From Candidatus Iainarchaeum sp. (GTDB taxonomy: Archaea > Iainarchaeota > Iainarchaeia > Iainarchaeales > GCA-2688035): DNA of 64,000 nt. Shown in pieces: positions 53,860-64,000 of the stretch; positions within the stretch are counted from its first letter, which is position 1; every line of letters starts with the position of its first letter. Location of the stretch: contig JAFCCL010000001.1 in the NCBI GenBank assembly GCA_017610205.1, positions 26,805 through 90,804 of the forward strand, written 5' to 3'. Position numbers and translations under genes: made by a program. A model generated the notes under the pieces. The model worked only from the letters and a program-made list of their open reading frames with translations. It had not been told where the DNA came from and searched no databases.

Positions 53860-55431
53860 ATGGGAAAAGAACTTTCTGTAATTGCAAAAGGTGCCGGTTT
53901 TATATTTGCTGGTTTTGCTTTAAGCAAGGTGTTTGCGCTTATTTACCGGATGCTTTTGGCAAGATGGCTTGGCCCTGCAGAATTTGGATTATTCTCTATC
54001 TGTCTAGGGATACTTGGTATTGTTTCAGTTTTTGCAGCTTTGGGGCTTTACCAGGGCATCCTTCACTATGTTGCGGTTTATGATAGTACCGGGCAAAAGG
54101 AGATGGTTAGGGGAACAATTTTGTTTGGATTAAAAGCCCAGTTTGTTTCTTCTGTATTTTTTGCTATAGTTTTGTTTATTTTATCTGACTGGCTTGCAGT
54201 CTCTTTTTTTCACGAGCCGGAACTTTCCATAGTGCTAAAAATTTTTGCAATTTCACTGCCGTTCTTTATTCTGACTTCTAGCCTGATGATTTTGACACAG
54301 GCTTTCAAAAAAATTAAATATAAAGTTTATCTAAGGAGTCTGATTGAAAATATTTCCAAAATTGTTTTAACTGTAATTTTTCTTTTTTTTGGATTTCAGC
54401 TTTTTGGAGTAGTTCTTGCACTTGCAATAAGTGCTGTTTTTACTTTTATAATTTCGCTTTACATTGTGCAAAAAAAAGTCTTTCCATTGTTTGATTCAAA
54501 AATTAAATCTAAATTTAATCCAAAAGAACTTTTTGCTTACAGCTGGCCTTTGTTTGCTGTTGGTTTTTTTTCAGTAATAATGAGTTCCACTGACACACTA
54601 ATGTTAGGTTATTTTTCTTTTGTTTATGATGTTGGAATTTATAATGTTGCTCATCCTGTAGCAAATTTTTTGACAGTTGCCGGAACTGCTTTTGGAACGC
54701 TTTTTCTTCCTATAATTACAGGAATTTATGCTCAAAAGAAAATGGATAAATTTGAAAAAACTTTTAAAACTATTACTAGGTGGGTTTTTTTAGTAACCTT
54801 CCCCTGTTTACTTTTTACAATTCTTTTTTCATCTGATATTCTTACGGTGTTGTTTGGTGACGTTTATGCAGCTGGTGCTGGAGTTTTGATAATTCTTTCG
54901 CTAGGTGTCTTTGTCAGTTCATTTACTGGTAACGTAAAATCAATTCTTGAAAGTATCAAAAAGACAAAACTTATTTTTGTTAATACTGTAATCTGTGGTG
55001 TTTTAAATATTTTTCTTAATTTCTGGCTTATAAAATTGTTTGAAACAAGTGGAAATGCTATTTTAGGCGCTGCTTTGGCCACTGCTTTTTCTTATTTTCT
55101 TTGGAGCTTTTTGGCATTTATTGAAGTTTATGTTTTGACAAGAATCCATCCTTATTCCAAGGCATATTTTGTTCCAACAATTTCAGCGTGCATTGCAATA
55201 CTTTTGTTTTTTGTTTTAAAGAATACCCTGCCTCCATTTATATTGCTGAACTTTCCGGTTGATTTTATTATATTGTGTCTTTTTGGTATTGGCTTTTTGG
55301 TATTTTATGGGGTGCTGTTTATCGTGTTTAAGGGGCTGCAGCCAGATGACCTTGAGATTTTGAAACAGGTTGAAGCTAAGTTTGGTTTTAAGTTTAACTT
55401 TATAAGAAATTTTGTGAAAAAATTTATTTAA
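53860..55431 (+). CDS. Wzx-type flippase
   Basis: LARWLGPAEFG, TDTLMLG, VGIYNVA. Confidence 0.88.
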   Translation: MGKELSVIAKGAGFIFAGFALSKVFALIYRMLLARWLGPAEFGLFSICLGILGIVSVFAALGLYQGILHYVAVYDSTGQKEMVRGTILFGLKAQFVSSVFFAIVLFILSDWLAVSFFHEPELSIVLKIFAISLPFFILTSSLMILTQAFKKIKYKVYLRSLIENISKIVLTVIFLFFGFQLFGVVLALAISAVFTFIISLYIVQKKVFPLFDSKIKSKFNPKELFAYSWPLFAVGFFSVIMSSTDTLMLGYFSFVYDVGIYNVAHPVANFLTVAGTAFGTLFLPIITGIYAQKKMDKFEKTFKTITRWVFLVTFPCLLFTILFSSDILTVLFGDVYAAGAGVLIILSLGVFVSSFTGNVKSILESIKKTKLIFVNTVICGVLNIFLNFWLIKLFETSGNAILGAALATAFSYFLWSFLAFIEVYVLTRIHPYSKAYFVPTISACIAILLFFVLKNTLPPFILLNFPVDFIILCLFGIGFLVFYGVLFIVFKGLQPDDLEILKQVEAKFGFKFNFIRNFVKKFI

Positions 55432-55465
55432 TTCTATTAAATATTTTTTTAAAGAAAAAAATAAA

Positions 55466-56620
55466 TCATTTTTTTTTAAAAACTATTTTTTCTTTGCTAC
55501 TTTTTTTTTCTTTAAATCCTAGTTTTTTAAAAAGTTTTTTTGAAGCAGTATTTTTTGGTTTTATTTCTGCAATACACTCCCTAATATTTATTCCTGATAA
55601 TGCTATAAACGCAATGCCTTTTTTTCTAAAATTTTCATTGATTGCAATTGAAACTATTTTTTTGTCAATTCTTGCAAGTCCAACTGGCGTTTTTCCTGAA
55701 AAAATTGCAAATGCCTTAAAATCATTATCTTTCAATTTTGTTTCCCAATATTTTGTGTTTTCTTTGACTTTTATTTTAGCAGGGTTAAATGAGTTTTTTC
55801 TGACAGTTTTTTGGTTCATAATGTTCAAAATCCATTTTCTGTCATTAAAATTTACTGGTCTTAGTGTAATTTGCTCAATATTTCCTCTTTTGTCCCTGTA
55901 TTTTTCTTCTTGAGTTATACTTATTTTTTTCAGTTTTGGATTGTTGTCAACAAACCCTATAACTTTTTCAACTTCTGCGTTTGTTTCAAGCTTTGAAAAA
56001 ATTGTTTCCATTAACTTAAGGTCTTTTTTTGTGTCAACACAAAACCTTAGCTCTGGTCTAAATAATTTTTTTCTTGCTTTTACATATCCCATTTTGAATT
56101 TTTTTGGGTTTGCATAAATATAATGAGTTACATGTTCTTTGTCAAACTTGCTTTTTGCTTCTTTAACTGTTTTTTCAAGTATTTTGAAAGAAAAGACTTC
56201 TACATCAAGGCCTCTTGGAAATGTTCTGAGTGCAATATTGCTTACATAATCAAATTTTTCTTTTAAAAATTTTTCAACTGTCTGATCAACTGTTTTAGAA
56301 TCAATTAGGGGACAATCTCCTGTTACTCTTATAACGACATCTAGCTCGTGTTTTTTTGCGCAATCATAATACCTTTTCAAAACATTATTTTCAGATCCTT
56401 TGTATACTTTAATTCCTTTTTTTTTGCAATAGTTTGAAATTTTATTGTCATTTCTTGCAGTGCTTGTAGCGACAATAATTGTATCAAGTTTCTTGCATGC
56501 TGTAAGTCGTTCAATAATAATCCCAAGCATTGGTTTTCCTGCAATCTTTGTCATACTTTTTCCAGGGAGCCTTGTTGATCCCATTCTTGCCTGTACTATA
56601 CAGCCTATTTTTTTTCTCAT
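55466..56620 (-). CDS. SpsF/PseF-like cytidylyltransferase fused to a PseH-like GNAT domain
   Basis: QARMGSTRLPGK, RVTGDCP, EHVT; then LRPV..DRKWILNIMNQKTVRKNSF...FRKKGIA...NTASKKLFKKLGF. Confidence 0.85.
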   Translation of the reverse strand: MRKKIGCIVQARMGSTRLPGKSMTKIAGKPMLGIIIERLTACKKLDTIIVATSTARNDNKISNYCKKKGIKVYKGSENNVLKRYYDCAKKHELDVVIRVTGDCPLIDSKTVDQTVEKFLKEKFDYVSNIALRTFPRGLDVEVFSFKILEKTVKEAKSKFDKEHVTHYIYANPKKFKMGYVKARKKLFRPELRFCVDTKKDLKLMETIFSKLETNAEVEKVIGFVDNNPKLKKISITQEEKYRDKRGNIEQITLRPVNFNDRKWILNIMNQKTVRKNSFNPAKIKVKENTKYWETKLKDNDFKAFAIFSGKTPVGLARIDKKIVSIAINENFRKKGIAFIALSGINIRECIAEIKPKNTASKKLFKKLGFKEKKSSKEKIVFKKK

Positions 56621-56780
56621 GATTTTTCAAGCCTTAAACGTATTTTTTCTTAATTGGCTGATTTTTCTTAATTGCTTTTTTTGCCTTGTTGCCAATTTTG
56701 AATGAATTCATTTTTGCTTTCACTTACTTTCAGCTTTTTTTTTTTACTTTATTTTCATTTTCTCTCTTTTAAATATTTTT

Positions 56781-57926
56781 TCATTTCACTTCTTTTAAAC
56801 CTTCTTTTACTTTTGCAATAACGTAATTTACATCATCTTCAACCATCTTTGGAAAAATTGGCAGGCTTAAAATTCTTTTAAAAACATATTCTGTGTTTGG
56901 AAAGTCCTTTGGATTCAAGTTATATTTTTTTTGGTAAAGACTGTGTCTGTAAATTGGAATATAGTGCACATTTACTCCAATGTTTTGCCCTCTTAGGAAT
57001 TTGAATAGCTTGTCCCTGTTTTTTACAAGCACGCAATAAAGATGCCACGCATGTTTTATTCCCTGCATTGTTTTTGGGGTTTTAATTCCGTCAAGTCCCT
57101 CAAATGCTTTGTTATATGTTTTGGCAATTTCTTCACGTCTTTTCAAAAATGTTTCAATTCTTGAAAACTGGCTTAATGCAAGTGCGCATCCAATATCGCT
57201 TATTCTAAAATTTCTGCTAAGTTCTTTAACATCATATGCATAGTCGCCATTTTTTCCAAAACGTTTTTTTGCATCTCTATCAATGCCGTGGTTTCTAAGC
57301 ATTAAAATTTTTTTATAAATTTCTTCGTTGTTAACTGTTATTGCTCCGCCTTCACCTGAAGTAATATGTTTTACCGGGTGGAATGAAAAGCACCCTGCTT
57401 TGCCAAAAGAACCTGCTTTTTTGCCTTGAAATTTTGCTCCAAGTGCGTGTGCTGCATCCTCTATGATTGCCACGTTATTGCTTTTTGCAATTTTTTCAAT
57501 TTCGTTCATTTGACAGCATTGTCCTGCAAAATGAACCGGAATTATTGCCTTTGTTTTTTCCGTTATTTTTTTTTCAATTTCACCAGGGTCTATGTTGAAG
57601 CTTTCTTTGTCGATATCTGCAAAGTCAACATCTGCCTGGTTTAGCAGGGCGGCGTTTGCAGATGCAACAAAACTAAGAGGGCTTGTTATTATCCTGGTTC
57701 CTTTTTCAACTCCACACGCTTTTGCAGAAAGTTCCAAAGCGGCGGTTCCGCTGTTTACTGCAACCGCATATTTTGTACCAATATAATCTGCAAGTTTTTT
57801 TTCAAATTTGGCAATGGCTGGTCCGTTTGAAATCCAATCGCTTTTGAGAACTTGGTTTACTGCCAAAATGTCTTTATTATTTATCCAATGCAAACCATAT
57901 GGTAAATAGTTTTCTCTTTTTTTCAT
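56781..57926 (-). CDS. DegT/DnrJ aminotransferase, PseC-like
   Basis: LPYGLHWI, NSGTAAL, EDAAHALG, SFHPVKHITSGEGG, VNVHYIP. Start moved to ATG 57926. Confidence 0.88.
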   Translation of the reverse strand: MKKRENYLPYGLHWINNKDILAVNQVLKSDWISNGPAIAKFEKKLADYIGTKYAVAVNSGTAALELSAKACGVEKGTRIITSPLSFVASANAALLNQADVDFADIDKESFNIDPGEIEKKITEKTKAIIPVHFAGQCCQMNEIEKIAKSNNVAIIEDAAHALGAKFQGKKAGSFGKAGCFSFHPVKHITSGEGGAITVNNEEIYKKILMLRNHGIDRDAKKRFGKNGDYAYDVKELSRNFRISDIGCALALSQFSRIETFLKRREEIAKTYNKAFEGLDGIKTPKTMQGIKHAWHLYCVLVKNRDKLFKFLRGQNIGVNVHYIPIYRHSLYQKKYNLNPKDFPNTEYVFKRILSLPIFPKMVEDDVNYVIAKVKEGLKEVK

Positions 57927-57969
57927 ACAAATCTTAATCCTGTATTTTTGCTTATTGCAAATATTGTTT

Positions 57970-58893
57970 TTATTGTTTTGCTTCAAACATTCTTTTTAAA
58001 CCTTCGTCTAAAGAAATTTTTGCTTCAAATCCCAATATCTTTTTTGCCAACTGGCCTGATGGAACCCTTTTAAAAATTTCTCTGGCGTTTGTTCTGTCAC
58101 TATTTTCCATATTAACAAACTTCGGATTTAGTTTCTTTCCACTTAACTTAATAACTTTTTCTGCCAACAGTTTCATCGAAATTGGTTCTGAATTGTTGCA
58201 TATGTTAAAAACTTTTTCATTAGCTTCCTTTTTTGTTAGTGCTAAAAGCACGCCATTGGAAGCGTCTTCTACATTACAAAAAGCCCTGATTTGTTCACCA
58301 TTTCCAAAAACAACCGGGTTTTTATCGTTTAATACATTATCAACAAATATTGGAATCACAAATTTTTTAGCTTGATTTATTCCGTATACATTAAAGAATC
58401 TAATAATTGAATAATTTAAATCATATCTTTGTTTATAAGCTTTTAGATATTCTTCACTTATTGCCTTAGTCAAACCATAAACTGATTTTGGTTTCAGTTC
58501 ATTTTTTTCTGTAATAGGAAAAACTGTTTGTTCGCCGTAAACTTCGCTTGATGAAGAAAAAACAATTTTTTTAACATTTTCTTTAACACATGCGTCTAAA
58601 ACATTAATAGTTCCCTGAGTGTTTATAGTCAAACAGTCCAATCTGTTTAATTCAGTGTTTTTAACGCCAATCATTGCTGCTAAATGTACTACATAGTCAC
58701 AGCCTTTAATTGCTTGTGATAGGCATGTTGAATCTAATATGCTTCCATAACAACATTTAATATTTTCTGAAAATTTCTTGTTTTTGAATTGATTAAAAAG
58801 GTCAAAAACGCATACTTCAAATCCTTCTTTAGCTAATCTTTCAGAAACATGGCTTCCAATAAAACCAGCTCCGCCTGTTACTAAAACTTTCAT
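57970..58893 (-). CDS. NAD-dependent epimerase/dehydratase
   Basis: [31 protein letters not shown]. Confidence 0.88.
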   Translation of the reverse strand: MKVLVTGGAGFIGSHVSERLAKEGFEVCVFDLFNQFKNKKFSENIKCCYGSILDSTCLSQAIKGCDYVVHLAAMIGVKNTELNRLDCLTINTQGTINVLDACVKENVKKIVFSSSSEVYGEQTVFPITEKNELKPKSVYGLTKAISEEYLKAYKQRYDLNYSIIRFFNVYGINQAKKFVIPIFVDNVLNDKNPVVFGNGEQIRAFCNVEDASNGVLLALTKKEANEKVFNICNNSEPISMKLLAEKVIKLSGKKLNPKFVNMENSDRTNAREIFKRVPSGQLAKKILGFEAKISLDEGLKRMFEAKQ

Positions 58894-58982
58894 ATTTTGT
58901 CACACACTCCTTTTTTTGCCTATTTTAATTTTTTTTATGCATTTTTAGGTAGTTATATTTCTAAATCGGATTTTTTTCTTAA

Positions 58983-59582
58983 TTATTTAAATTTTGCTTT
59001 GGTTTTTTCCGATATAATTTTTGTCAGCCCTTCTTTTATTATAATACCTGATAACACAATAGGTAACATTCCTGTTGTCAAAATTATTTTAGTGTAAAAT
59101 AAACCTTTTCCTATTTTCTTTTTTAATTTTATTTTTGCCCTGTTAATTTTAGGGTGTTTGGTTTTGTGATAATATGACCCTTCTTTCAAAATTGTTTGAA
59201 ATTCTTTTTTTGTTTTGACCGGGGTATAACAATAATCCGGGACTTTTGTATAAAATTTTTTTTCTCCAACTGGAAAATAAGCAATTGTGACAACTTTTAA
59301 AAGTAATCCTTCTAATACTACTGTTGAAATTCCTTTGTATGCAATTGTAACATTCAAATTTGCTTCAAGCATTTGCTTATACAGTTTTGTTGTATTATCC
59401 AAGTAAACTCTCATGCCTTTTTTTTTGATATATGTTTTAATCTGTTTTTCGTTGCTACTTTTATGCAGCCTTACTGTTATTTCTATATTTTTATCATTTA
59501 ATTCTGAAATATCTTCGAGAGTTTTTGCAATTGGTTCAAAACCAGCGCAAGTTATGATTAAAACTTTGTACATTTTTTTCAC
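58983..59582 (-). CDS. Hypothetical protein resembling a GT-B C-terminal half
   Basis: VRLHKS...ISTVVLEGLLLK; 4-nt overlap with the PHP gene. Confidence 0.5.
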   Translation of the reverse strand: MKKMYKVLIITCAGFEPIAKTLEDISELNDKNIEITVRLHKSSNEKQIKTYIKKKGMRVYLDNTTKLYKQMLEANLNVTIAYKGISTVVLEGLLLKVVTIAYFPVGEKKFYTKVPDYCYTPVKTKKEFQTILKEGSYYHKTKHPKINRAKIKLKKKIGKGLFYTKIILTTGMLPIVLSGIIIKEGLTKIISEKTKAKFK

Positions 59583-60478
59583 CTTTTATTTTCAAAACTT
59601 TTTAAGTTCAATGTTAACTGCGATGATTTTTTAATTTTTTTGAGAACCGAATCTGGAATTGTAACTGAATTAATTGTTTGCCTATCGCCCCCATGAAAAT
59701 CGCTTCCTCCTGATTCAAGCAGGTTTTTTTCTTTTGCAATTTTCTGGAAAAATTTTATTATTTTCGTGTTTTCTTTTTTATCAATTTTTAATCTTGGGCA
59801 AATTATATAGTAAGGGTAATATGTTTCAATTCCTTGTCCTCCTTGTTTTTTAAAAAACTCGATTAATTTGATAGCCTTTTCTTTTGGAAAAATTCCAGGA
59901 TGTGCAAGAAATGTTGTGCCACCAGCTTTTTTTATTATTGTTATTGCTTCTTTAATTCCTGACTTTGATTCCCTGTCAACATAGGCTGGTTTGCCTGCTC
60001 CTAAATATTTTTCAAAAGCTTCTCTGATTGAGTGGATTTTGTTAGGGTATTTTTTCATAAGTAGCATGGCTATATGCGGTCTTCCCAATGTTCCTTTTAC
60101 TCCTGATTTTAGTTCTTCAAAACTTATGTCGAAGCCAAGTTTTTGCAATTTTTTTACAATTTTTTTCTTTTGCTCAAGCCTGTCCTGTTTTGCCTTTTTG
60201 ACAAATTTGTTTAGTTCATTGTTTTTGTAATCAACAAATAATCCAACAACTTCCGCTTCTTTGAATCCGTGTTTTTCTTCGTCGCAATTTATTTCTATTC
60301 CTGGAATAATCTCGATTCCTTTGCCTTTTGCATATTTGACAGCTGGTACAATGCCACTTATTGTATCGTGGTCTGTTATAGCTATGGCATTAAGGCCTTT
60401 TTTTAATGACAGTTTAACCAATTCTTCTGGTGAAAGCCTTCCGTCTGAAGCTGTTGTGTGCATATGCAAATCTACCAT
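59579..60478 (-). CDS. PHP-domain phosphoesterase, TrpH/YciV subfamily (3',5'-nucleoside bisphosphate phosphatase-like)
   Basis: DLHMHTTASDG, ITDHD, PGIE, GRPHIA, LAHP, GGSDFHG. Confidence 0.88.
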   Translation of the reverse strand: MVDLHMHTTASDGRLSPEELVKLSLKKGLNAIAITDHDTISGIVPAVKYAKGKGIEIIPGIEINCDEEKHGFKEAEVVGLFVDYKNNELNKFVKKAKQDRLEQKKKIVKKLQKLGFDISFEELKSGVKGTLGRPHIAMLLMKKYPNKIHSIREAFEKYLGAGKPAYVDRESKSGIKEAITIIKKAGGTTFLAHPGIFPKEKAIKLIEFFKKQGGQGIETYYPYYIICPRLKIDKKENTKIIKFFQKIAKEKNLLESGGSDFHGGDRQTINSVTIPDSVLKKIKKSSQLTLNLKSFENKR

Positions 60479-61101
60479 GTTTTTTCATCCTCTAGAATTT
60501 TAATCAATCTAACTGAAAGAATTTCAAGCCTTTTTTTTGGAATGTAAATTTTTTCAACAGGTTTCATTTTTACAAAACTTTTTCCTGTTTTGTCATTGAA
60601 TTCCTTTTTTTTCCCAAAAGAACTGTCAACAGTATAAGGCTGTCCTATATTTCCACTGAACGGGAAAATTTTTATGTGCAAATGCTCTTTTTTCTCTTTC
60701 CAGTTTGTGCATTTTCCATAAGTTGCTATTGAAATTGCAGAATACTTTGATTTAGCTGTTAGCTTGAATTTCTTGCTTTCTTCCGCCATTACTTTTGCCA
60801 TTGCATGGTTTAGTTTTGCAAAGGCAATTCCATAGTTTTTTGCAAGTTTTGAATATTTTAAAAGTTGGGCAAAGTGTGTTAAATGTGAAAATGGCATGAG
60901 TTGTAGGCTGAAATCTTTTTCTAAACCCCCTGTTTTTGGAGACAATGTTGCAAACCACCCGTCTTCAGTTCCTGTTCCAATTCTGAATACAATTATAGAT
61001 CCGTAATCAGTTTTTTTTCCTGTTTCAAGAGATGCTTCTTTGCACAAATTGCAACTTTTTTTTTGTTCAATGCTTTCTCCAACAAGTTTTTCTATTGCCA
61101 T
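60472..61101 (-). CDS. HIT/GalT-like protein with variant motif
   Basis: N-terminal CNLC, LMP.SH, and EHLHIKIFP (HxHxK). Confidence 0.55.
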   Translation of the reverse strand: MAIEKLVGESIEQKKSCNLCKEASLETGKKTDYGSIIVFRIGTGTEDGWFATLSPKTGGLEKDFSLQLMPFSHLTHFAQLLKYSKLAKNYGIAFAKLNHAMAKVMAEESKKFKLTAKSKYSAISIATYGKCTNWKEKKEHLHIKIFPFSGNIGQPYTVDSSFGKKKEFNDKTGKSFVKMKPVEKIYIPKKRLEILSVRLIKILEDEKTW

Positions 61102-61102
61102 A

Positions 61103-62185
61103 TTAAATTACCTTTATGAATTCTTTTTCCCGCTGGTCTGTTAAATATGAATCAAAATAGCCTGTTACAATACGGTGATATGGATTTCCATTTTTTGGCT
61201 TAACTTTTTCAAGAATGCCGCATGCCCTTATTTTTTCTCCTGCATATGCCAGTTGGCTGTAGTCTCTTGAGTAAAACACAACTTTTTCAACATTGCAGTC
61301 TTTGTCTGAATCAATTAACTTTGAATCTGTTAAGGTATAACATCCTGGTCTTACAACTGAACTGTGGTGGTCTTTTACTGTCCCTTCAACTGTTGCCAGT
61401 CCGCATGAGGAATATTTTTCTTCTCCCCATTTAAACCAAACTTCTTCTTTTTTTTCTGCTGCAAAAATTACAAAAAGCAGGTTATCAAAATATCCTTCAG
61501 ATTTTTTTCTTTCAAGCATATGTTTTAGAAATTTTTTTTCATCAAAAATGTTGAACCTGTTCCTTTTTTTGTAAAATTCAAGCCATTCTTTTTCGTTTTT
61601 CCATCTTAAGGATTTATGCCTGGTTTTTTCAAGATATTTCATAAGTTTCCAGAAGTTTTTTTTCCCGTATACAACGACATTTATGTCTGACATATTGTAA
61701 ACATATTGTCCCATTAGTGTTGAGTAAGTTATTCCAAGGTCTTTAAGTCTGATTCCGCTTTCAAGCAGGAAATTTACAAATTTGTAGACTGTTGCAAGAT
61801 GGTTGTCAAGTGCATTTTCAGGCATTGACATAAGTTCAGCAATTCCGGTTCTTGGAAAATAAATTCTTTCAATATCTTTGTTCTTTGCTAAAAAGAATAA
61901 TCTTTCATTGTTGTGGAATTCGCTTTGGAAAATGTGGTTTGGATATGCCTTTTTGAATTTGTCAATATACTGAACAAGGCTGTTTTTTTCTGCCCACAGG
62001 TTTAGCCTGTTCATTTTTTGACCTGAGATAAAACGGTATTGCAGTGAATCACATTCTATTTTGTCTGTTGGAATGTATTTTGGCTTTACTAAAATGCCCT
62101 GTTCAGGGTGCTGGTTTCCATAAACCTGACAATGAAGTCCGTCTTTTGTTGTTATCATTGATGACTCGTAGAAATGCATTTTCAA
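61103..62185 (-). CDS. Pol-beta-like nucleotidyltransferase (COG1665-like), paralog B
   Basis: H-P..KPKYIP, LGITYSTLMG..SDINVVVYG, C-terminal OB-like AGEKIRACGILEKV. Confidence 0.7.
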   Translation of the reverse strand: MKMHFYESSMITTKDGLHCQVYGNQHPEQGILVKPKYIPTDKIECDSLQYRFISGQKMNRLNLWAEKNSLVQYIDKFKKAYPNHIFQSEFHNNERLFFLAKNKDIERIYFPRTGIAELMSMPENALDNHLATVYKFVNFLLESGIRLKDLGITYSTLMGQYVYNMSDINVVVYGKKNFWKLMKYLEKTRHKSLRWKNEKEWLEFYKKRNRFNIFDEKKFLKHMLERKKSEGYFDNLLFVIFAAEKKEEVWFKWGEEKYSSCGLATVEGTVKDHHSSVVRPGCYTLTDSKLIDSDKDCNVEKVVFYSRDYSQLAYAGEKIRACGILEKVKPKNGNPYHRIVTGYFDSYLTDQREKEFIKVI

Positions 62186-63282
62186 ATCTCCGCTTTTATG
62201 AATTCTTTTTCCCTTCTCTCACTTAGGTAAGCATCAAAATATCCTATGACTACTCTGTAATATTTTTCCTCATGCTTTGGTTTGACAAGTTCAAGTAAAC
62301 CGCAGGCTGTAATTGTTTCTCCTTTCAAAGCCTGTTGTACAAAAGGAATTGAATATGTTACAATTCTTTTTATTGGAATTGCATTGTCAATTTTGGGTGT
62401 TTTGTGGTTGCCTTCTATTAACTTTGTTTTTTCCACTTCATAAAAGCCAGGTCTTACATGGCTGTTATAATGGTCGCTTACAATTGCTTTTATTGTTGCA
62501 AGTCCTTTTGGCTCATATTCTGCTTCTTCCCATTTGAACCATGTTTCTTCCTGTTCTTCAACAGTGAAAAGAGTAAAAACTGTTTCTCCAAATAATCCTT
62601 CATATTTTTTTCTTTTCATATGTTTTACATATTCTTTCTCTGTAAAGTGTGAAGATTCAGATGTCTTATGTTCTTTGTAATATTCTGTCCATTCCTTGTC
62701 AGTTTTCCATTTGAGCTTTTCATGCTTTGCTTTTTTCAAAAAATCAAGTATTTTCCACCCATTTTCCTTTCCATAAATTATCATGTCAATGTCAGACTTT
62801 CCAAAGGTGTAATTTCCAAGCAATGTTGAATGCGTTATTCCCATACTTTCAGATTTTACTCCGCTTTTTTCAAGCAGTTTAACTAATTCAATTACTAGTT
62901 TTAAATATCGGTCCAAATTCTTTTCTGGAACCTGAAGCAATTCCTGCAATCCCTTTCTTCCGTCATGTACTGTTTTTATTTTGCTTTTTGGAACTACATA
63001 AAACCAGTTTTTGTGCAAAGGGCAATCATAGATATATTCCGGAAACTTTTTTTTGAATTCGTTTACGTATCCTTCAAGTTTGTTTTTTGGTGCAAACTGG
63101 TTAAATCTTACAAGGCATTTTTCAAACAAAAACCGGTATTTTAATCCTTTTCCAGAAATTGAATCTTTTGGAATATATTTTGGCTTTACTATTACAAACC
63201 CTTCAGGATGTTCGTTTGCATAGGATTTGCATTGAAAGCCGTCAACAGTGTCTATTAGGGTTGATTCATAAAAATGTGGCAT
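62182..63282 (-). CDS. Pol-beta-like nucleotidyltransferase (COG1665-like), paralog A
   Basis: H-P..KPKYIP, MGITHSTLLG..SDIDMIIYG, C-terminal KGETITACGLLELV. Confidence 0.72.
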   Translation of the reverse strand: MPHFYESTLIDTVDGFQCKSYANEHPEGFVIVKPKYIPKDSISGKGLKYRFLFEKCLVRFNQFAPKNKLEGYVNEFKKKFPEYIYDCPLHKNWFYVVPKSKIKTVHDGRKGLQELLQVPEKNLDRYLKLVIELVKLLEKSGVKSESMGITHSTLLGNYTFGKSDIDMIIYGKENGWKILDFLKKAKHEKLKWKTDKEWTEYYKEHKTSESSHFTEKEYVKHMKRKKYEGLFGETVFTLFTVEEQEETWFKWEEAEYEPKGLATIKAIVSDHYNSHVRPGFYEVEKTKLIEGNHKTPKIDNAIPIKRIVTYSIPFVQQALKGETITACGLLELVKPKHEEKYYRVVIGYFDAYLSERREKEFIKAEI

Positions 63283-63418
63283 TGATTCACCTTAATCCTG
63301 ATTAAAAAAATGTGGTTCGCAATTGTTTTAAAACACTGTTTTTTTATCTTTGTACTACTTGAAAAATGTTGTTCTATTAAAAGGATTATGACTATAAAAA
63401 TTGTAAAGTAGTGATCTA

Positions 63419-63955
63419 ATGAACGTAAAATCTGGTACAATCTGGTTTTCGGGTTTACATGGTTCTGGAAAAACAACTATTGCAAAAGCCATTTCTGAAA
63501 AACTTAGATTTAATGGCATAAAAGTTGTTGTATTGGATGGTGATGAATTGAGAAAAGGTCTTTCGGCAGACCTTAACTATTCTTTGGAAGAACGCAACAA
63601 GCACTTAAAAAGGGTTGCAAACATCTGCAAGATTATTTCAGAAAATGATGTTTTGAATATTGCCTGTGTTGCTTCCCCAACTGAAAAAAGTAGAACTTAT
63701 GCAAAAGGAATCATTTCTAATTTTTTTGAAGTTTATATTAAATGTCCTCTACAAGTGTGTGAACAAAGAGATGTCAAAGGACATTATAAACGTGCAAGGG
63801 CTGGAGAAGCTGGTTTTGAAAACTTTTTGGGAATAAATCTTACATTTGAAGAGCCAAAATCAGCAGATTTTGTTCTTGAAACCGACAAAGAGCCTGTTAA
63901 TAATTCAGTTGAAAAGCTCTTCAATAAGATTTTGGAAAAAAACTGGCTCAAGTAA
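63419..63955 (+). CDS. cysC: Adenylyl-sulfate (APS) kinase
   Basis: WFSGLHGSGKTT, LDGDELR..L..DLNYS..ER, RDVKGHYKRARAGE. Confidence 0.92.
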   Translation: MNVKSGTIWFSGLHGSGKTTIAKAISEKLRFNGIKVVVLDGDELRKGLSADLNYSLEERNKHLKRVANICKIISENDVLNIACVASPTEKSRTYAKGIISNFFEVYIKCPLQVCEQRDVKGHYKRARAGEAGFENFLGINLTFEEPKSADFVLETDKEPVNNSVEKLFNKILEKNWLK

Positions 63956-64000
63956 TAATATTTATCTTTTTCAATTTTTTTCCCATTTTTCTTCATATTG

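Follow-up and report, generated by a model that had tools for sequence, protein, structure and literature searches.

A conserved nucleotidyltransferase, HIT-fold and PHP gene cassette tied to PAPS metabolism in a Candidatus Iainarchaeum glycan locus: a possible route to sulfate activation

Layout of the locus

The stretch analysed here (the window) is 64 kb of a Candidatus Iainarchaeum sp. contig, G000:C3:26805-90804, from a 1.37-Mb assembly that is 92.3% complete. Near its right edge, a minus-strand operon encodes two paralogous nucleotidyltransferases (NTase A and NTase B), a protein with a predicted HIT fold and a PHP-domain phosphoesterase, and it is divergent from cysC, the gene for adenosine 5'-phosphosulfate (APS) kinase (Table 1). 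The module is real and conserved, and no description of it was found in the literature searched, which did not extend to supplements. In this genome it is firmly tied to the metabolism of 3'-phosphoadenosine 5'-phosphosulfate (PAPS), and we tentatively read it as a source of activated donor for surface glycans.

The initial annotation, made from the letters and open reading frames (ORFs) of the window, described a coupled operon separated from cysC by a short divergent spacer, and the spacer and gene junctions are exact in ORF coordinates: NTase A overlaps NTase B by 4 nt, NTase B and HIT are 1 nt apart, HIT overlaps PHP by 7 nt, and PHP overlaps the fifth ORF by 4 nt. It also described the operon as pointing into a glycan locus, which the families of the downstream same-strand genes bear out (epimerase/dehydratase, PseC-type aminotransferase and cytidylyltransferase-GNAT, by Pfam and NCBIfam). 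On the other side, beyond a sulfotransferase gene that crosses the window edge, lie genes for glycosyltransferases, a deacetylase, epimerases, a PF01663 phosphodiesterase and a methyltransferase. The divergent arrangement of NTase A and cysC recurs in genomes G174, G155 and G186.

Table 1. Features of the cassette region, in window coordinates unless a contig position is given.
Feature	Coordinates	Strand	Remarks
NTase A	62182..63282	minus	366-aa ORF, Pol-beta-type nucleotidyltransferase
NTase B	61103..62185	minus	360-aa ORF, paralogue of NTase A
HIT-fold protein (predicted)	60472..61101	minus	209-aa ORF
PHP-domain phosphoesterase, TrpH/YciV type	59579..60478	minus	299-aa ORF
Fifth ORF, GTG start	58983..59582	minus	199 aa; overlaps PHP gene by 4 nt
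cysC, adenylyl-sulfate (APS) kinase	63419..63955	plus	divergent from NTase A
Divergent intergenic region, NTase A/cysC	63283..63418		136 bp
Sulfotransferase gene, 3' end	63971..64000	minus	whole gene G000:C3:90775-91740, 321 aa, crosses window edge

Paired nucleotidyltransferases

NTases A and B are 44% identical over 365 residues (E value 9e-116). Neither matches a Pfam or NCBIfam model even at an E value of 10, and PDB sequence and profile searches returned nothing usable. The motif G..S..SDID is intact in NTase A (S163, D164, D166), where it reads GITHSTLLGNYTFGKSDIDMIIYG, while in NTase B the second metal-binding aspartate is replaced by asparagine (SDIN). This division holds across the related loci, with DxD in 54/54 NTase A orthologues, DxN in 54/54 NTase B orthologues and DxD in 10/10 single-copy relatives. 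The Pol-beta signature G-x-[ST]-x(9-13)-D-x-D is present in the family alignment; among its 76 sequences G148, S163 and D164 are invariant (S163 and D164 in 76/76), and D166 is kept in 74. By the Pol-beta motif hG[GS]x9-13Dh[DE]h with two carboxylates, NTase A conforms and NTase B lacks the second carboxylate. The proteins annotated at the outset as twin nucleotidyltransferases are thus a paralogous pair, but of one canonical and one altered subunit, since NTase B lacks the second catalytic aspartate.

Links to characterized nucleotidyltransferases are distant. Remote homologues match NTP_transf_2 at E values of 0.001-0.003, under the cut-off, the Atlas neighbours of NTase A carry NTP_transf_2 on 20-49% of their members, and an NTase profile weakly matches the kanamycin NTase core in the PDB (E 1.1). 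The AlphaFold2 (AF2) model of NTase A (predicted local distance difference test score, pLDDT, 95.8) has an N-terminal beta domain, an NTase core and a C-terminal OB-like domain. Foldseek returned partial, weak matches to poly(A) polymerase (probability 0.54-0.60) and to OB folds of the SSB and LysRS type, and no whole-chain PDB neighbour (best E 0.057). The window NTases share with minimal Pol-beta enzymes (NTP_transf_2, kanamycin NTase, the poly(A) polymerase core) a signature with invariant Ser and Asp and weak profile and fold matches, but differ in reaching no Pfam model, in their additional N-terminal beta and C-terminal OB-like domains, and in the obligate pairing of A (DxD) with B (DxN). 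Sequence clusters contain 282 homologues at E ≤0.001 (90% clusters) and 490 representatives at 50% clustering; among the best 120 of the 282, identity reaches 70-87% for the nearest, and none bears a name other than 'predicted nucleotidyltransferase'. By the source names of these homologues, the genome belongs with DPANN archaea of the Woesearchaeota/Nanoarchaeota type. No literature was found on COG1665 or MJ1086.

Co-folding of A with B, a check proposed with the initial annotation, yielded an ipSAE interface score of 0.74 in two runs and 0.63 in a third, versus 0.00 for the best control; the mark used for this score is attained by 58/80 solved complexes and 2/110 mismatched pairs. Contacts agree between runs at ≥87%, the partner pLDDT is 88, and the predicted interface is pseudo-symmetric and adjoins the NTase loops. 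The model supports, but does not show, that NTase A and NTase B form a dimer, as paralogues could pass as a homodimer.

HIT-fold and PHP proteins

The 209-aa protein has 306 close homologues and no Pfam, NCBIfam or PDB sequence or profile match (for Pfam also at an E value of 10). Its invariant residues in a 36-sequence alignment are a CxxC pair (C17, C20), H73, H76 and the stretch KKEHLHIK (H140, H142, K144). Nearly all listed Foldseek matches of its AF2 model (pLDDT 87.8) are HIT proteins, led by 2eo4 (probability 1.00, E 9e-3) and including Rv2613c Ap4A phosphorylase, Fhit and Hint, with template modelling (TM) scores normalised to the target of 0.5-0.68. At the level of the model, the protein has a HIT fold. 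It does not have the histidine triad: H140-L-H142-I-K144 occurs in 36/36 sequences, retaining two histidines with lysine in the third position. The predicted structure indicates that this is a HIT fold in which HxHxK replaces the triad, and the original 'HIT-like' label stands on fold matches, with zero sequence-family matches behind it. Compared with Rv2613c and Fhit, likenesses are the predicted fold, a CxxC + His pattern resembling a zinc site and an H-x-H in the expected place. Differences are the missing sequence-profile match, the invariant Lys where HIT proteins have His or Gln, about 60 further residues with a long C-terminal helix, and frequent fusion to NTase B. Fhit/GalT-like HIT enzymes, including APS:phosphate adenylyltransferase, move AMP between anhydride partners, APS among them.

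The PHP protein matches PF02811 at 2.5e-17. It aligns at full length (residues 2-270 of 299) to the NCBIfam models for 3',5'-nucleoside bisphosphate phosphatase (NF041577; 168.3 bits, cut-off 400) and RNase RNM (162.8 bits, cut-off 375). It thus resembles TrpH/YciV-type enzymes (bisphosphate phosphatase; RNase AM) in domain and alignment length, but because its scores fall far under both equivalog cut-offs, a substrate cannot be assigned from sequence. PHP-CysC fusions occur in loci L078 and L084; L125 has no PHP, and its B-HIT fusion is followed directly by a fusion of Inositol_P (CysQ) with CysC; and a SpoT-type HD protein (HD_4) stands in for PHP in 8 loci with enough flanking sequence. In total, 40 of the 41 twin-NTase loci with enough flank carry a 3'-phosphatase-type domain (PHP, HD_4 or CysQ-like). 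Judging from context and family scores, PHP is probably a 3'-phosphatase acting on adenosine 3',5'-bisphosphate (pAp). The initial proposal of a pAp hydrolase is therefore favoured by fusion and exchange, although the NF041577 cut-off is missed.

Sulfate genes of this genome

The cysC product scores well as an APS kinase (PF01583 at 4e-46; TIGR00455 at 176.3 bits against a cut-off of 138.7). It carries a GLHGSGKT P-loop and LDGD, both common to sat-linked orthologues, and is 65% identical to the sat-overlapping cysC of the same-genus genome G066, with which it shares LDGD and CVASP motifs. Its first identification is thereby upheld. Convergent with cysC, just past the window edge, is the 321-aa sulfotransferase (PF00685, E 2.5e-10, 40.6 bits, cut-off 22), the sole PF00685 match in the genome. 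Its translation contains the stretches TRAGK and RNPVDLTYS, which, compared by eye with the consensus, we take to be 5'-phosphosulfate-binding (5'-PSB)-like and 3'-phosphate-binding (3'-PB)-like PAPS-binding motifs.

No gene for ATP sulfurylase accompanies them. Sat (PF01747) has 0 matches across the genome and none among the cassette proteins, and CysD (TIGR02039) has 0 matches across the genome. The best match to the CysN model (TIGR02034) is 315 bits, against a cut-off of 336, for a 426-aa ORF on contig C13 that we take to be a candidate translation factor, aEF-1alpha; three weaker TIGR02034 matches lie within ~40 kb of it. The absence of sat and cysDN first noted for the window thus extends to the whole assembly. 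A sat next to cysC, which the initial annotation would have held against its proposal, was found neither there nor elsewhere in the assembly, and the search past the right edge that it recommended revealed a PAPS-type sulfotransferase. The APS-kinase-family cysC and adjacent sulfotransferase, together with no Sat, CysD or CysN, indicate a need for APS in this genome.

The cassette in other genomes

Even sampling of the phylum (201 genomes) turned up the NTase in 8 genomes, and 0/5 other genomes of the genus have it, which identifies it as an accessory gene. A housekeeping function was rejected on the same counts. A profile scan of species-representative genomes recovered 71 related loci in DPANN genomes, with the recurrent gene order [PF01663 phosphodiesterase]-A-B-HIT-PHP-[cysC]. 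Seven loci carry a fusion of the phosphodiesterase with NTase A, and seven carry one of NTase B with HIT. Enough flanking sequence is available for 46 loci, 41 with twin NTases and 5 with a single NTase. HIT is encoded in 39 of the twin loci, cysC in 17 and the phosphodiesterase in 26; both of the latter occur in 5 and neither in 3, and those 3 have an adjacent Sulfotransfer_2 gene instead. Across all 71 loci, cysC is found in 24. Several cassettes, including the one described here and those of L089, L093, L108, L109, L125 and L129, have a sulfotransferase gene (PF00685 or PF03567) as a neighbour. PMC11625862 calls the PF03567 sulfotransferases of Woesearchaeota uncharacterised. For DPANN archaea more generally, a term search of PMC8091004 places 'ATP sulfurylase' in its reference list alone.

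Glycan genes dominate the neighbourhoods, with glycosyltransferase family 4 (GT4) in 31 of the 71 loci, epimerase/dehydratase in 31, flippase in 29, NTP_transferase in 20, GT2 in 17 and methyltransferase in 17. Sulfatase-family (PF00884) genes occur in 15. A CDP-OH_P_transf-like family is present in 20, the better of two tested members reaching E 0.0019, under the Pfam cut-off. Membrane proteins resembling CDP-alcohol phosphatidyltransferases follow PHP directly or lie near the cassette (L020:4187-4882 in G041; L136:6549-7433 for the 20-locus family), and a CDP-OH_P_transf gene is also found near sat-cysC in G066 (L062:10954-11679). A conserved ORF of ~79 aa with no Pfam match lies upstream of the phosphodiesterase or NTase A in 25/71 loci (e.g., L110:6129-6368). 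L132 (JAGXBC010000002.1) is an A-B-HD cassette on a contig labelled Patescibacteria (Candidate Phyla Radiation, CPR); this could be a binning or labelling error, or a transfer between episymbiont lineages.

The five single-NTase loci have a different composition. A paralogue of prolyl-tRNA synthetase (ProRS) takes the place of NTase B and HIT, cysC is present in 0/5 and the phosphodiesterase in 4/5. In L134-L140 and L142 (e.g., L136:10084-11460), the ProRS paralogue lies between the NTase and PHP; it also occurs at G021:C9:82690-84057. It combines a tRNA-synt_2b core with ProRS-C_1 and a weak anticodon-binding domain, and its scores of 372-426 bits fall short of the TIGR00408 cut-off of 437. 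A separate, higher-scoring bona fide ProRS is encoded elsewhere in 4/5 single-NTase genomes searched.

Co-occurrence with cysC, sat and cysDN

The compared genomes are related metagenome-assembled genomes (MAGs), so the counts that follow overstate independence and carry no statistical test. Four records appear under two handles (G076=G201, G155=G203, G041=G204, G174=G209), and G214 (cysC-positive) and G232 (CysD-positive), both flagged unpublished, are included. Sat is found in 0/50 cassette genomes, and in none of the 8 NTase-bearing phylum-sample genomes nor G140. Strong or contig-end cysC occurs in 19/201 phylum-sample genomes. Among the 13 of these that lack the cassette, sat adjoins cysC in 6 (including same-genus G066) and CysD is present in 4. 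A canonical sulfurylase gene is thus encoded in 10 of these 13, versus 5 of the 28 genomes in which the cassette and cysC occur together (0 sat, 5 CysD). Of the 25 cassette genomes without cysC, 23 are also without Sat and CysD.

CysD coexists with the cassette in 6 of the 50 genomes (G202, G203, G204, G209, G226 and G232) and in G186, at 181-227 bits; as a reference, the CysD that adjoins a CysN-CysC fusion in G031 scores 193 bits. CysN adjoins CysD in four of six loci examined (G202, G203, G204, G186) and was not seen adjacent in G209 and G226. G204 (G041) has CysDN and the cassette without cysC. The anti-correlation between the NTase pair and sat that was anticipated at the outset is therefore evident for Sat, with G066 having sat-cysC instead of the cassette, but is only partial, given CysD in 7/53 genomes. 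The anticipated linkage to cysC is recurrent (24/71 loci, with PHP-CysC fusions), but cysC itself was found in only 25/50 cassette genomes.

A tree of NTase A (FastTree, 46 rows) requires at least 7 changes in cysC linkage, compared with 12-18 in the ten shuffles printed, so the linkage does not reflect a single inherited accident. An independent-pairs comparison of cysC and phosphodiesterase on this tree found 3 supported pairs, too few to be informative. The phosphodiesterase occurs in the outgroup and basal lineages and thus looks ancestral.

The sat and cysC genes of G066 overlap, and sat is followed by pyruvate-kinase-like and CDP-OH_P_transf genes, families that both recur beside the cassette. 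The pyruvate-kinase-like protein of G066 has an N-terminal winged-helix domain (L062:9097-10797), and 6 loci encode a similar protein immediately before their single NTase (L136:7601-9004). Relatives also have other CysC fusions: CysC with a CysD-like part in one 445-460-aa frame (G126, L067:1-1336), methyltransferase-CysC (G182, L066:6578-7945) and CysN-CysC (G031, L068:6507-8864).

Distant NTase relatives

A metagenome scan with a profile of 25-32%-identical relatives identified 80 further loci. These relatives (~340 aa) are mostly in tandem, with DxD in both copies; 34 loci are D/D and 18 have a single D. Their neighbours include FTR (37 loci), an Rce1-like protease (18), CitG-like and Asn_synthase-like proteins (15 each), a weakly CooT-like small protein (14) and FolE2/MptA (13), and, less frequently, flavoproteins and a pterin-binding DHPS-like protein. 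Within L156-L235 (e.g., L162, L184, L225, L227), relatives come directly after genes for the FolE2/MptA GTP cyclohydrolase and the pterin-binding DHPS-like protein, and one relative, P0178, is fused to HPPK. The neighbours and the HPPK fusion tie the wider NTase family to pterin/methanopterin cofactor genes, and the distant members may provide a missing step of methanopterin or pterin synthesis. For the family as a whole this suggests adenylyl or phosphoryl chemistry on oxyanions, which is compatible with sulfate as the substrate here without proving it.

Proposed function and alternatives

What, then, does the cassette do? The PHP-CysC and CysQ-CysC fusions, the 3'-phosphatase-type domains and the adjacent sulfotransferases tie the recurrent cassette to the PAPS cycle. 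The reading that we favour, tentatively, is that it makes and recycles an adenosine-5'-phospho-anhydride donor for surface glycans, here likely APS/PAPS. Under this scheme, NTases A and B would form a pseudo-symmetric heterodimer that binds MgATP, with A (DxD) as the catalytic subunit and B (DxN) serving in binding or in hand-over. This heterodimer and the HxHxK HIT protein would, probably via a His142-AMP intermediate, transfer AMP to sulfate to generate APS. By family membership, CysC would then convert APS to PAPS and the adjacent sulfotransferase would sulfate the glycan. PHP, as its family scores and replacement by CysQ-type or HD_4 domains suggest, would clear the 3'-phosphate of pAp. 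HIT/GalT-branch enzymes interconvert APS and other AMP anhydrides, and the Pol-beta motif of NTase A alongside a predicted HIT fold near Ap4A phosphorylase and Fhit would be a suitable pairing of chemistries.

The resemblance to the canonical PAPS pathway (Sat PF01747 or CysD/CysN, CysC, sulfotransferase, CysQ) lies in the adjacent CysC and sulfotransferase, in a PHP that occupies the expected place of the pAp phosphatase and can give way to a CysC-fused CysQ-type domain, and in the pyruvate-kinase-like and CDP-OH_P_transf neighbours shared with the sat-cysC of G066. The departures are that Sat, CysD and CysN homologues are missing here, that the candidate activators have predicted Pol-beta NTase and HIT folds unrelated to either sulfurylase class, and that CysC is missing in half of the cassette genomes. 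The new ATP sulfurylase or PAPS module proposed initially thus retains its recurrent PAPS-cycle link, whereas an APS-making role for any one protein is unsupported.

Several observations weigh against APS synthesis. Only 25/50 cassette genomes and 17/41 twin loci with enough flank have cysC, and only 8/50 genomes have a PF00685 sulfotransferase. CysD coexists with the cassette in 7/53 genomes, including 4 of the 7 closest relatives, and a new sulfurylase would be redundant there. The PF01663 phosphodiesterase looks like the ancestral and commoner partner, with cysC added several times. A ProRS paralogue replaces B and HIT in the single-NTase loci, none of which has cysC, and the distant NTase relatives sit in pterin/methanopterin, not sulfur, clusters. 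NTase B is DxN throughout, the A:B model would suit a homodimer of paralogues just as well, and the relatedness of the MAGs inflates the apparent independence of the counts. No SulP, DASS or PiT sulfate transporter was found in the genome; other transporter types were not searched.

Many of these points fit a different product. The cassette may make an AMP- or ADP-linked phospho-compound (an adenylylated phosphate ester) that is installed on glycans as a phosphodiester by the phosphodiesterase, the CDP-alcohol-phosphatidyltransferase-like protein or sulfatase-family transferases, with CysC, where present, 3'-phosphorylating the donor into a PAPS-like cofactor. We consider this unlikely. The PF01663 partnership (26/41 twin loci, 4/5 single loci, 7 fusions to NTase A) suits phosphodiester as well as sulfate chemistry, PF00884 occurs in 15 loci and the CDP-OH_P_transf-like family in 20/71, and half of the cassette genomes lack cysC. 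The association of distant relatives with FolE2/MptA, DHPS-like, CitG-like, FTR and HPPK points to phosphate- or pyrophosphate-ester chemistry on a cofactor side chain. A CysC homologue reportedly 3'-phosphorylates cytidine diphosphoramidate in Campylobacter capsule synthesis; 'cytidine diphosphoramidate kinase' is a term in the literature. This alternative sits poorly with a cysC that passes the APS-kinase equivalog cut-off and is orthologous to a sat-coupled cysC (65% identity, same motif variants), with sulfotransferase-fold genes flanking the cassette here and in L089, L093, L108, L109, L125 and L129, and with the rarity of a canonical APS source when the cassette is present (5/28 cassette + cysC genomes vs 10/13 without the cassette).

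Decidedly unlikely, in our view, is a role in salvaging, editing or interconverting the adenine nucleotides of the PAPS cycle (APS, pAp, Ap4A-type), instead of making APS, downstream of or beside a canonical sulfurylase that some genomes have and that is unassembled here. About 8% of this genome is unseen, CysD(N) and the cassette coincide in 7/53 genomes (among them G041/G204 without cysC), and each of PHP, HD_4 and CysQ is a hydrolase. Dinucleoside polyphosphates and AMP anhydrides are made or cleaved by HIT proteins, NPP-type phosphodiesterases and paralogues of class II aminoacyl-tRNA synthetases, which also agrees with such a role. However, 23/25 cysC-less cassette genomes have neither Sat nor CysD, and so no canonical APS to act on. 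With Sat in 0/50 cassette genomes, a repeated assembly gap at one gene is improbable, and a four-to-six-gene module with a heterodimeric NTase (closest listed homologues 70-87% identical) seems elaborate for salvage. Action on nucleic acid (tailing of RNA or tRNA 3' ends, repair or defence, with an OB-fold NTase, an aprataxin-like HIT de-adenylylase and an RNase AM-type PHP exonuclease) appears highly improbable. The NTase A C-terminal domain does resemble SSB and LysRS-type OB folds and its core poly(A) polymerase, weakly (E ≥0.057), but the probabilities of the OB matches are low and only a single domain is covered. The PHP scores are near-equal for RNase RNM and pAp phosphatase (163 and 168 bits), and a ProRS paralogue replaces B and HIT in single-NTase loci. 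In opposition, the 71 loci are rich in glycan genes (GT4 31, epimerase/dehydratase 31, flippase 29, GT2 17), and the fused or substituted partners are CysC, CysQ and sulfotransferases rather than nucleases, helicases or restriction-type genes.

Returning to APS/PAPS synthesis, a bolder extension is that the Pol-beta DxD/DxN heterodimer and HxHxK HIT protein constitute a third, evolutionarily independent class of sulfate adenylyltransferase. The wider family would adenylylate oxyanions (sulfate or phosphate esters), distant members would fill an unassigned side-chain step of methanopterin or pterin synthesis, and the fused alkaline phosphatase (AP)-superfamily phosphodiesterase would use APS directly without CysC. 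We regard this combination as somewhat doubtful.

Implications

Sulfate activation is known for two enzyme classes only, Sat and CysDN. If true, a third class that combines Pol-beta and HIT folds would deserve a place in textbooks, and would explain surface sulfation in the many DPANN archaea that have cysC and sulfotransferases without a sulfurylase. Even if the substrate is not sulfate, the module is strongly conserved, and three of its proteins have no known function. Its location in cell-surface glycan loci of host-attached organisms indicates that it probably shapes surface chemistry. Concrete, testable hypotheses follow from the obligate pairing of an active with a degenerate NTase, from the Rosetta-stone fusions (phosphodiesterase-A, B-HIT, PHP-CysC) and from the pterin link of the distant relatives.

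Other features of the region

The fifth ORF, first counted as part of the operon module, falls outside the conserved cassette, which weakens that earlier reading. It has a BLAST match in 0/71 related loci and none in a further 6-locus comparison, and it was rejected as a cassette member on these grounds. It matches TIGR04396 weakly (E 3.7e-4), and the Atlas points to LIC12162 and capsule-synthesis families, with scores no higher than 0.90-0.92; by these sequence comparisons it is a gene of the glycan locus. A promoter and terminator scan of the window gave nothing above shuffled sequence, using bacterial models that are not applicable to an archaeal host, and no tRNA genes were found within the 64 kb. 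G+C content is 0.29-0.33 in the glycan and cassette region (window 54001-64000), compared with 0.34-0.41 over the remainder of the window and 0.36-0.41 for the contigs, a pattern typical of exchangeable surface-glycan islands.

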